Below are positions 16,504-18,261 of a DNA stretch of 21,502 bases, in pieces. The notes beneath the pieces are model-generated. The model worked only from the letters and a program-made list of their open reading frames with translations. It made no database searches and was not told the origin of the DNA. A program made the translations under genes and the position numbers. Source of the DNA: a virus. Its lineage: Duplodnaviria > Heunggongvirae > Uroviricota > Caudoviricetes. Each line of letters opens with the position of its first letter. Position 1 is the first letter of the stretch. The DNA lies in the IMG/VR virus record IMGVR_UViG_2541047680_000007, one strand, 5' to 3'.

Positions 16504-16679
16504 GAAAACAACCCATTATCAAATACAAGGCCCGACATGAAAACGCCAGAAAAAGGCATTTTCGGACACTTTCATGTCGGACCTTTACGGATGCAATATT
16601 AAAAAAAACAAAAAGTTATATTCGAGAAGTACCGACACGATTTTCCCTGAAAAATTTTCATAAATAGTGAAAAACCGCG
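16504..16679 (-). promoter_or_regulatory. cosB-like terminase-binding region between cosN and the Nu1 start
   Basis: Positional inference. The minus strand immediately after cosN reads CGCGGTTTTTCACTATTTATGAAAATTTT, closely matching the start of the lambda genome (CGCGGGTTTTCGCTATTTATGAAAATTTT). Confidence 0.55.
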
Positions 16680-16691
16680 AGGTCGCCGCCC
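16680..16691 (-). other. cosN cohesive-end site (GGGCGGCGACCT on the minus strand)
   Basis: Plus strand 16680..16691 AGGTCGCCGCCC is the reverse complement of the 12-nt lambda cohesive end GGGCGGCGACCT. Confidence 0.85.
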
Positions 16692-16839
16692 CGTAACCTG
16701 TTGGATCGACGGAAAGGACCCGAAAACGAGAATAATTATCACTTACAGCAAGAATCGAATCTGATCTATTATGGTGCTTGCTATTATGTGCCGGCACAAG
16801 TGCGTCGTTTACCGTCATTTCACACAGAGGCATCATCAA

Positions 16840-17091
16840 ATGAAAATCAGAAATATTCTCGCTATCTCCCTTGCGACATCATCCTTCAGTTGCCTGGCAT
16901 TTAAATCCTCGCCCAATGTGCTACCAGGACCAACGAATCAACTAACTGCGGTAGAAAGTAAAATTATCGGACATTTTTATGCCCCACACAGTACATTACC
17001 CGGAACAACCATCACAGGGACATGTGACGCCTCCCCCGTCCCGGGATGCACCTGTCCGTTTTGTACTATGCTGCGTAGCCAAAACCGATAA
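16840..17091 (+). CDS. Hypothetical small secreted cysteine-rich protein (signal peptide predicted)
   Basis: Trimmed from track ORF 16771..17091 to ATG 16840, which has GAGG 7 nt upstream. MKIRNILAISLATSSFSCLA looks like a signal peptide; the C-terminal part has five Cys (TGTCDASPVPGCTCPFC). No family recognised. Confidence 0.35.
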   Translation: MKIRNILAISLATSSFSCLAFKSSPNVLPGPTNQLTAVESKIIGHFYAPHSTLPGTTITGTCDASPVPGCTCPFCTMLRSQNR

Positions 17092-17152
17092 CATCCGCAT
17101 TTACCTGGTATTCCATGATGAGTTCACGCAGCGACTGATAGAGGAAGGAAAG

Positions 17153-17332
17153 ATGGTTAGTAAAAGCAAGGCGCATTGCCGCCGCATGCTGCAGGCATTG
17201 CAACAGACGAGAGCAGGTATTTTTGACCAGTTGGAAAACTGCCAGCATACTTTGCCCGAGTATATCGCCATCTCATCGGAAACCAGTGCAACTCTTATTC
17301 ATCGGGTTCCACCAGAGAAAAAGAAGAAATGA
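17153..17332 (+). CDS. Hypothetical small protein (59 aa)
   Basis: Internal ATG of track ORF 16979..17332, preceded by a strong Shine-Dalgarno (GAGGAAGGAAAG ATG). Product MVSKSKAHCRRMLQALQQTRAGIF... ends in a lysine run. No family recognised. Confidence 0.3.
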   Translation: MVSKSKAHCRRMLQALQQTRAGIFDQLENCQHTLPEYIAISSETSATLIHRVPPEKKKK

Positions 17333-17454
17333 ACAGTGAGGCGTTGTGTGGCATACAACGCCTTCTTCCATCATTCCTCGTCAGCCATGACAAAAATATA
17401 ACCGCTGGCTCTTTCATTTTTCTCCTGCTTCCAGCCCCTCTCTACCTGGAAGCA

Positions 17455-17781
17455 TCAAGGACGTGACGGCGTAAAGATAAATTGTCTCTTCACTCCCTGA
17501 CAGGGGCGATTCTTTTCAAATCGCCATTTCGCCATGGCCTTCACCACTTCATCACGAAACAAATTATGAGGCTCTGAGCGGAGAAAAACGATCCGTGTCA
17601 CAGTCCCATCAGCACCAATATCGAACTTAACCTCAACCAGCCCCTTGATATAATTTGCTGCAGCATATTCCGGATATCGTGGATACACCGTCACTAATTG
17701 CCGGGGCTCATCAGCTTTTTGCTGCGAGCATCCCACTGCCAGGACAGATAACAGAAAAAGTAGTAAAAGGCGTCTTTTCAT
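17455..17781 (-). CDS. Lipoprotein with a TonB C-terminal-domain-like fold (moron between cos and bor)
   Basis: Trimmed to ATG 17781 (MKRRLLLLFLLSVLAVGC SQQ...), a signal peptide with lipobox ending at Cys. The mature part YPRYPEYAAANYIKGLVEVKFDIGADGTVTRIVFLRSEPHNLFRDEVVKAMAKWRFE aligns motif-for-motif with the E. coli TonB C-terminal domain ([54 protein letters not shown]). Confidence 0.7.
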   Translation of the reverse strand: MKRRLLLLFLLSVLAVGCSQQKADEPRQLVTVYPRYPEYAAANYIKGLVEVKFDIGADGTVTRIVFLRSEPHNLFRDEVVKAMAKWRFEKNRPCQGVKRQFIFTPSRP

Positions 17782-18261
17782 TTTTATTCCTACGGGTCTT
17801 ATTCTGACAATATATCCTGTGTTCCAGACTGCCACATCACCACATCCTGTGCCATTATCTGACTCACATTACATACATCGCATCGGGATACAGTAGTAGC
17901 ACTTTCTGTAATACAGCTTCCTGTTTCTTCCACCATCGCACCGGGATAAACCCGCGAATCATTAACGCGGTAAAAACCCGGTGTGCATCGTTTTTAATTA
18001 TTCCCGCACACTCACGCAGAAGGAATTCCCCGTCGGGCTACGGTCATGGTTAATGCGGGAATACGGCGACGATACAGCGCAGCTAAAAGGGTAATGGACG
18101 GATAGACCGGTTTATTTCATTCCACAGGATTCTGAGTGTCCCCAACTTCCTCCAATAGTCTGAGCCCACCTGTGTAGTTTTAATTTTCATCAATCCATTT
18201 AACTATCGTTTAATTGTTGTCACATAGGATTCTGCCGTTTTTAACAATGCAGGATAATAAG

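Follow-up and report, generated by a model that had tools for sequence, protein, structure and literature searches.

The cargo genes beside cos in a phage-21-type prophage include an unannotated small gene whose family is associated with Zur boxes

This study deals with the segment between the cohesive end site (cos) and the bor gene in a 21,502-nt stretch of viral DNA (IMG/VR record IMGVR_UViG_2541047680_000007), the whole of which we refer to as the window. By sequence comparison, the segment at positions 16504-18261 is the cluster of cargo genes that lies next to cos in a phage-21-type prophage, at its right end. Its sequence is 100% identical to that of phage 21 at this end (record OL657228; for cos also M81255), and copies with 100% identity were also found in the prophages of Escherichia coli Nissle 1917, of ATCC 11775 and of many extraintestinal pathogenic (ExPEC) and avian pathogenic (APEC) strains. 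Of 5426 complete E. coli genomes, 1234, or about one quarter, contain the part from 16700 to 17450. Late transcription in the window runs from right to left. An initial annotation had placed two small open reading frames (ORFs) on the plus strand, at 16840-17091 and 17153-17332, antisense to the late operon like bor, and both were found at exactly these positions. As a set of lambdoid morons the cluster is nothing unusual in kind, and it lies in a phage that has already been sequenced. Its evidence-backed genes are an unannotated gene for an 83-aa product, a gene for a lipoprotein with a TonB C-terminal domain, and bor/iss. The initial annotation had neither identified the DNA as phage 21 itself nor noted the link between the family of the 83-aa protein and zinc starvation through the regulator Zur.

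The plus-strand ORF at 16840-17091, which encodes an 83-aa pre-protein, is on comparative grounds a real, conserved gene under purifying selection. A search of 5.8 billion proteins retrieved homologs that are likewise 83 aa long, with 55-77% identity, from Salmonella, Klebsiella and Citrobacter as well as from a second lineage of E. coli prophages. Comparison with three homologs, for which synonymous sites are saturated, gave dN/dS values of 0.10-0.20. The differences at codon positions 1, 2 and 3 amount to about 20, 14 and 45, and of the six frames only this one stays open throughout the four sequences compared. As the start codon, the ATG at 16840 is backed by the family. An upstream ATG at 16771, used in some GenBank calls of 106 aa, is destroyed in the variant of the enterohaemorrhagic E. 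coli (EHEC) type, where the 83-aa frame is intact. The earlier proposal of a secreted, cysteine-rich protein is well founded: the diverged homologs and the dN/dS values place the gene far beyond chance, the frame is kept in the second prophage lineage, and export is predicted from the protein sequence. Phage 21 is a classical model phage, yet the gene was missed by its curated GenBank record and in all seven RefSeq genomes that we inspected, and two dubious ORFs were annotated instead. Some GenBank submissions list the product, solely as "hypothetical protein".

A profile search of 1.84 billion representatives, together with a scan for a degenerate DNA pattern in one genome of each GTDB species, recovered about 40 family members of 76-97 aa from Enterobacterales; about 12 chance matches of the scan in unrelated phyla were dropped after translation. 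The genera represented are Serratia (many species), Pantoea, Rahnella, Raoultella, Klebsiella, Citrobacter, Kosakonia, Buttiauxella, Shimwellia, Siccibacter, Phytobacter, Superficieibacter, Dryocola and Enterobacter; in environmental Serratia, Pantoea and Rahnella the gene belongs to the core gene set. Alignment of the close homologs revealed a variable middle and an almost invariant C-terminus. Across the family, residues A20, F21, C62, G69, C70, C72 and C75 are invariant and G60, P66, L78 and R79 nearly so. The C-terminal motif C-D-A-S-P-V-P-G-C-T-C-P-F-C-T-M-L-R, encoded at 17023-17076 on the plus strand, is made up of such columns and can be written as C-x7-C-x-C-x2-C-x2-L-R. A helix-prone segment, E39…F46-Y47, is also conserved in the mature part. 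The N-terminus M-K-I-R is followed by a hydrophobic region (residues 5-17, hydropathy up to 1.8) and by a cleavage site with an invariant Ala at -1, C, A, S or V at -3 and an invariant Phe at +1. This indicates a signal peptide of residues 1-20, predicted to be cut between CLA and FK by signal peptidase I, with a mature protein of about 63 aa. Sequence and profile searches for the 83-aa product in Pfam, NCBIfam, PHROGs, PADLOC and the PDB returned no match.

Two further sequences deserve mention beside the family. A protein of 627 aa (P0089), eukaryote-like and rich in Asn, Ser, Thr and Pro, contains five repeats P-I-P-G-C-N-C-P-K-C-T-N-L-R-N, which correspond to the family motif G-C-x-C-x2-C-x2-L-R. 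A record titled Pseudomonas lundensis strain I31 (L019) holds a family member with neighbours arranged essentially as in the Serratia loci; this assembly may be mislabelled or contaminated.

Judged from the DNA around its members, the family is strongly associated with the Zur zinc-starvation response, and control of such members by Zur in vivo appears probable. The core of the enterobacterial Zur operator, reportedly described by Panina and colleagues in 2003, is TGTTATANTATAACA (TGTTATA-N-TATAACA). This consensus was checked internally against the boxes of pliG and of the islands described below. With a threshold of at least 11/14 within 200 nt upstream of the gene, the core was found at 28 of 41 family loci from 12 genera, compared with 11 of 1574 control windows (0.7%) and 57 of 4100 shuffles. 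In most cases the Zur-box-like palindrome is found 35-110 nt ahead of the start codon.

The genomic neighbourhoods point in the same direction. No neighbour gene is conserved across genera among the loci compared, and no common operon partner was found. In Salmonella salamae, diarizonae and arizonae the family gene lies 95 nt downstream of pliG and is co-directional with it; this pliG, identified by its match to PDB 4dy3, has a perfect 14/14 Zur box at 36-50 nt upstream. It has been established experimentally that pliG is a Zur target in E. coli (PMC4219657). The Siccibacter gene abuts an operon for the chaperone AztD and the binding protein AztC, which has a Zur-like box of its own. Two islands of Superficieibacter (L046 900-7755 and L059 2686-7137) each possess a Zur-like box and each end with the family gene; the former encodes a metal-binding protein together with paralogs of ThrRS, dihydroorotase (PyrC) and porphobilinogen synthase (HemB), the latter a HisI paralog and ZigA. 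A copy on a Klebsiella plasmid (L006 4800-5000, CP024459.1) is found beside genes for a Fur-family regulator and a CobW-type GTPase. Upstream of this copy we found a degenerate lambdoid cos (GGTCACCGCCCC…CGGAAAGC), which suggests that it came from a phage end that was captured into a metal-homeostasis region of the plasmid. Our literature search on Zur-regulated cysteine-rich proteins found no description of these genes, and the association of the family with Zur is previously undescribed in the libraries searched. It provides a testable lead to a new periplasmic component of the response to zinc limitation.

The DNA in front of the phage copy holds two elements of interest. At 16787-16798 (no strand), 42-53 nt upstream of the 83-aa start and where the chromosomal relatives have their Zur box, lies a perfect palindrome, TGTGCCGGCACA, with a Zur-core score of only 8-9/14. 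The homologous place in another E. coli prophage (L009) reads TGTTAACGTAACA, like a Zur box minus two central bases. The palindrome may be a relic operator. Directly after cosQ, at 16722-16746 (no strand) and 94-118 nt upstream of the start, we found a Fur-box-like element consisting of overlapping 15/19 and 14/19 matches to GATAATGATAATCATTATC. It is the sole match of at least 14/19 in the window, and shuffles yield 0.05 matches of at least 15/19. The element is annotated in neither the phage 21 nor the lambda record, and it is kept in lambda (GTGATAATGATTATCATC, 48452-48472; about 2150-2175 in L075), in L009 (about 4860-4880), in L012 and in L150. In lambda, L009 and L150 the next gene on that strand is a DUF3950 gene. 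Since the element is conserved whichever gene follows, it belongs to the cos-proximal slot and not specifically to the 83-aa gene, and it may serve cos or another gene. A literature search on Fur together with ylcI found no description of these genes.

Our overall explanation, which we consider rather probable, is that the segment is a cargo cluster with a gene for an 83-aa periplasmic protein of a zinc-starvation-linked family, captured by the phage with loss of the Zur operator. The pre-protein would leave the cytoplasm by the Sec pathway, and cleavage by signal peptidase I behind Ala20 would release a periplasmic protein of 63 aa. Its C-terminal C-x7-C-x-C-x2-C segment would form either two disulfides or a metal site. 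The role of the family would most likely be a periplasmic one under zinc limitation, either the capture and hand-over of zinc or an envelope function in zinc-starved, host-like conditions. Lambdoid phages would have taken up the gene into the slot beside cos, where, if expressed from the prophage, it would be transcribed away from cos and antisense to the late operon. In the phage copy the Zur operator would have been lost, and the gene would now stand behind the Fur-like box conserved beside cosQ. If true, this would be a prophage-borne metal-starvation gene under altered control, with a bearing on nutritional immunity.

Several observations weigh against this explanation. Directly upstream of the copies in the window, in L009, in L012, on the plasmid and in the Salmonella island, the Zur core reaches scores of only 7-9/14. 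The best score for the window copy is 8/14, so that zinc control of the phage copy itself is unsupported. Nor could we accept the Fur-like box as the own operator of the 83-aa gene, since lambda has the box without the gene, and a consensus scan upstream of the phage copy gave no convincing sigma-70 promoter. On the side of the family, 19 of the 28 loci with a Zur box are from Serratia and the loci are thus not independent. Cysteines in the periplasm are usually oxidised, which speaks against a zinc site formed by four Cys. Two AlphaFold2 models of the 83-aa protein were of low confidence (pLDDT 49 and 60), too low for a fold search on the models. Should the zinc lead prove wrong, the correction of the annotation would still be useful.

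A more far-reaching form of this explanation can be put forward tentatively, as a possibility. Here the protein (about 63 aa, four Cys) would be a so far unrecognised member of the Zur response that has been captured repeatedly into the cos slot, a dedicated site of expression under a Fur-like operator. Prophages, among them phage 21 and those of Nissle 1917 and of ExPEC and EHEC strains, would then supply their hosts with a metal-limitation factor rewired from zinc to iron, beside a TonB decoy and Bor/Iss.

The same data can be read without any handling of zinc. The 83-aa protein might, by analogy with PliG, a lysozyme inhibitor under Zur regulation, be a disulfide-stabilised periplasmic protector or inhibitor made for a zinc-starved host setting, and so a virulence or fitness factor together with bor/iss. 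In Salmonella it is encoded directly behind pliG, in an island that also contains bor, an omptin, a SPATE autotransporter and a NEL effector, and it travels with bor/iss in the prophages of ExPEC, APEC and EHEC; four invariant cysteines in a protein with a predicted signal peptide would suit such a role as well. However, it has no similarity to known inhibitor families, other members of its family stand beside zinc transporters and chaperones and not beside envelope-defence genes, and environmental Serratia, Pantoea and Rahnella carry it as a core gene. We therefore regard this view as doubtful.

Two other readings concern the nature of the product and are far less probable. The first, by which Cys18 would carry a lipid and the product would be an outer-membrane lipoprotein of the kind of Bor, Cor or Llp, seems very improbable to us. 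It is true that Cys18 is invariant in 18 close homologs, that S-F-S-C fits the permissive PROSITE lipobox rule, and that some members bear the automatic UniProt/UniRef name "Lipoprotein". The wider family, however, has Ala, Val or Ser at this position (…ALAF, AMAF, AAAF, SQAF…), whereas A20 and F21 are invariant. The A-x-A site followed by Phe and the replacement of Cys18 in distant members argue for cleavage by signal peptidase I, and the lipoprotein reading was rejected because there is no invariant lipobox Cys across the family. No more credible is a pre-pro-peptide which frees a small disulfide-rich C-terminal toxin or signal, as in the heat-stable enterotoxin STa. The 83-aa product shares with the STa precursor a signal peptide, a variable middle (about 40 aa) and a conserved, Cys-rich C-terminus (about 24 aa). 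But the number and spacing of the cysteines differ, as C-x7-C-x-C-x2-C is unlike the patterns of ST and guanylin (C-x2-C-x4-C-x2-C, or six Cys), and the N-P-A motif for receptor binding is lacking. The central helix segment (E39…F46, Y47) is conserved too, and both the phylogenetic distribution and the regulation are different, the family being core in non-pathogenic environmental genera and associated with Zur.

Returning to the preferred explanation of a captured, zinc-starvation-linked gene, it is useful to compare the 83-aa gene with known systems. Like the lambdoid morons bor (lambda) and iss, it is a small, apparently envelope-directed gene placed between the modules for lysis and packaging. 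It runs against late transcription and occurs in some but not all of the otherwise syntenic phages; bor is found on the same strand at a distance of 1.2 kb. In contrast to bor/iss, its product has no PF06291 match and is not a lipoprotein by its predicted cleavage site, no convincing promoter and no terminator hairpin with a proper U-tract were seen for it, and it is unannotated in the phage 21 record. With the Zur-regulated ZinT and PliG it has in common the small size, the Sec export (predicted in our case) and, at the level of the family, the TGTTATA-N-TATAACA operator. It shows no sequence similarity or detectable fold similarity to either of them, has four invariant Cys where ZinT has His-rich sites, and lacks the Zur box in the phage copy. 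The DUF3950/YlcI genes of the lambda right end and of DLP12 (ylcI) occupy the same slot beside cosQ, behind the Fur-like box and pointing away from cos, and L009 has both genes in tandem. The proteins themselves are unrelated, as they give no alignment and the DUF3950 product has no signal peptide.

The DNA between the 83-aa gene and the convergent gene for the TonB-like lipoprotein (17092-17454) contains two overlapping ORFs and is found only in copies of the phage 21 and EHEC types. On the plus strand, a 59-aa ORF (17153-17332) has a good Shine-Dalgarno sequence, GGAAGGAAAG, before its ATG. It matches phrog_4843 and is called by the NCBI pipeline (PGAP, WP_000253883.1) in some genomes. A 60-aa ORF on the minus strand (17066-17248) is annotated as CPT_21_75 in phage 21 and as WP_000881610.1, WP_000881607.1 and WP_000881608.1 in RefSeq, and it matches phrog_3744. 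The pipeline chooses the plus-strand ORF in some E. coli genomes and the minus-strand ORF in others, with DNA that is essentially the same. Six nt after the 59-aa stop codon begins a 12-bp hairpin (17338-17364, no strand; -22.6 kcal/mol, z = -3.7, none of 200 shuffles as stable). It lies between the convergent 83-aa and TonB-like genes, has no proper U-tract on either strand and could equally well end the transcripts of both.

From sequence comparison, we consider both ORFs most likely to be non-coding sequence in a convergent spacer of 360 nt. A small-protein gene expressed in the lysogen and restricted to E. coli, as the initial annotation had proposed for the 59-aa ORF, is unlikely, even though the Shine-Dalgarno sequence, the very stable hairpin behind the stop codon, the PGAP and PHROG matches and two SNPs that are synonymous in its frame within the part in common with the antisense ORF all speak for it. 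The proposal does not survive the comparison with related prophages. Among 5.8 billion proteins there is no diverged homolog, only near-identical E. coli copies; apparent protein matches at 62-77% (P0026, P0033, P0037) came from indel-ridden assemblies and were discounted. Likewise, no diverged copies of the segment were found in phages, in E. coli genomes or at loci with a TonB-like gene of 72% identity, so that the ORF is missing where this neighbour is retained. In the EHEC-type lineage, represented by hundreds of contigs, a 1-nt insertion at about 17168, after codon 5 of the 59-aa ORF, shortens it to 48 aa and the 60-aa ORF to 40 aa. Among six haplotypes, 2 synonymous and 4 non-synonymous SNPs were counted in the 59-aa frame, a small sample and weak evidence. 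Neither product has a match in Pfam, NCBIfam, PADLOC or the PDB, and kinship of the 59-aa ORF to DUF3950 was rejected, as the two do not align. Still less probable is that the minus-strand ORF is the real gene of the segment, co-transcribed with the late operon. Its annotation, its PHROG match and its orientation on the late-operon strand favour this view, but its homologs are near-identical E. coli sequences only, it is cut by the insertion just described, each of the four SNPs hits the first or second position of one of its codons, and at its 3' end it shares 26 nt with the end of the conserved 83-aa gene on the opposite strand.

The gene at 17455-17781 on the minus strand, that of the late operon, encodes a lipoprotein of 108 aa with the lipobox LAVGC and a Ser at +2. 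The protein matches Pfam TonB_C (PF03544, 7e-13), TIGR01352 and PDB 1u07 (1.4e-14) and is about 40% identical to residues 150-230 of E. coli TonB, so that a complete TonB C-terminal domain directly follows the lipoprotein signal. It lacks both the N-terminal membrane anchor of TonB, which couples to ExbB/ExbD, and the proline-rich spacer. The protein is therefore not a TonB and cannot transduce energy, and its scores against the NCBIfam TonB equivalogs (45-69 bits) are far under the cut-offs of 265-448 bits. The TonB-C-like lipoprotein noticed in the initial annotation is hence confirmed, and it forms a separate cargo unit which travels on its own in other prophages.

By analogy, the most plausible role of this lipoprotein would be that of a periplasmic decoy on the TonB boxes of outer-membrane transporters, by which TonB-dependent phages or colicins would be blocked or progeny phage protected. 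The proposal is based on published dominant-negative effects of periplasmic TonB fragments: Howard and colleagues reportedly found in 2001 that the C-terminal domain of TonB, when expressed in the periplasm, is dominant-negative for transport through FhuA and FecA. As in those fragments, a complete TonB C-terminal domain is put into the periplasm, here on a lipid anchor. The phage lipoproteins Llp of T5 and Cor of phi80 and N15 block FhuA; the 108-aa protein is unrelated to them in sequence, is encoded on the late-operon strand, and would resemble them in its decoy role by analogy only. A literature search for a prophage TonB-like lipoprotein found no study of the protein. The TonB-like lipoprotein also matches PHROG 1267 (5e-43), a group labelled "Rz-like spanin", and the label is probably wrong for it.

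The cluster is a mosaic. The stretch at 16692-16747 is 82% identical to the right end of lambda. Positions 16651-17087, which comprise cos and the 83-aa gene, share 68% identity with further E. coli prophages (L009-L011), in which a DUF3950 gene comes after the 83-aa gene and Rz follows immediately. The TonB-like gene with its upstream DNA (17472-18081, minus strand for the gene) has about 70% DNA identity to the prophages L150-L154, which marks the extent of the travelling unit; these prophages have neither the 83-aa gene nor the 59-aa segment, and beside their cos stands a DUF3950 gene of the lambda type. Positions 17974-18084 and 18208-18600 are 83% and 90% identical to the bor region of lambda. 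Among related prophages the slot thus holds the 83-aa gene with DUF3950, or the TonB-like gene with DUF3950, with bor present or absent. The 83-aa gene itself behaves as a moron: phage 21, L009 and the EHEC-type prophages have it, lambda and L150-L154 do not, and the flanks are homologous. These differing gene sets bear out what had been said earlier of the region, namely that a variable cluster of morons separates cos from the lysis genes. The DUF3950 (YlcI-like) ORF beside cos is antisense to late transcription, at about 48302-48110 on the minus strand of lambda (from about 2003 downward in L075) and at 2959-3159 in L150; the RefSeq feature table of lambda does not list it.

The cos of phage 21 occupies 16504-16722 (no strand), with the IHF site I0, R1, R2, I1, R3, I2, cosN and R4/cosQ, and is 100% identical to M81255 and OL657228. 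The sub-sites of the M81255 record project onto 16506-16722, R4/cosQ being at 16711-16722. As had been proposed, cosN lies at 16680: the 12-nt cohesive end can be read directly at 16680-16691 as aggtcgccgccc (minus strand GGGCGGCGACCT), and the end of the phage 21 record corresponds to position 16692 of the window. Nu1 is encoded at 15955-16503 on the minus strand. On the other side of the cluster, the bor/iss gene for the serum-resistance lipoprotein runs from 18262 to 18555 on the plus strand, one position before the start of 18263 that had been given initially. Its product has both the Lambda_Bor domain (PF06291, 1.1e-30; phrog_260, 4e-59) and a lipoprotein signal, its DNA is 90% identical to lambda bor, and its RefSeq name is iss. 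Rz and R come after bor on the minus strand. The description of 17800-18260 as AT-rich holds only for 18100-18300 (GC 0.38), the remainder up to about 18100 having a GC content of 0.44-0.50. An Rfam search of the window gave no known RNA, and the prophage sRNA svsR (PMC12803456) was discarded as a candidate, its position being that of cI. An element of the IS66 family at about 13050-15750 (ORFs 13108-14679 and 15046-15723, minus strand) interrupts the gene for the large terminase subunit, which is broken into 15723-16025 and 11348-13024. Because of this split, the prophage of the window is defective and cannot package DNA. A further cargo gene, for an OmpC-type porin of 343 aa (Pfam Porin_1, 3e-126), is located at 20286-21317 on the plus strand, upstream of the lysis genes and antisense to late transcription; it is annotated as ompC in the identical prophage of Nissle 1917.

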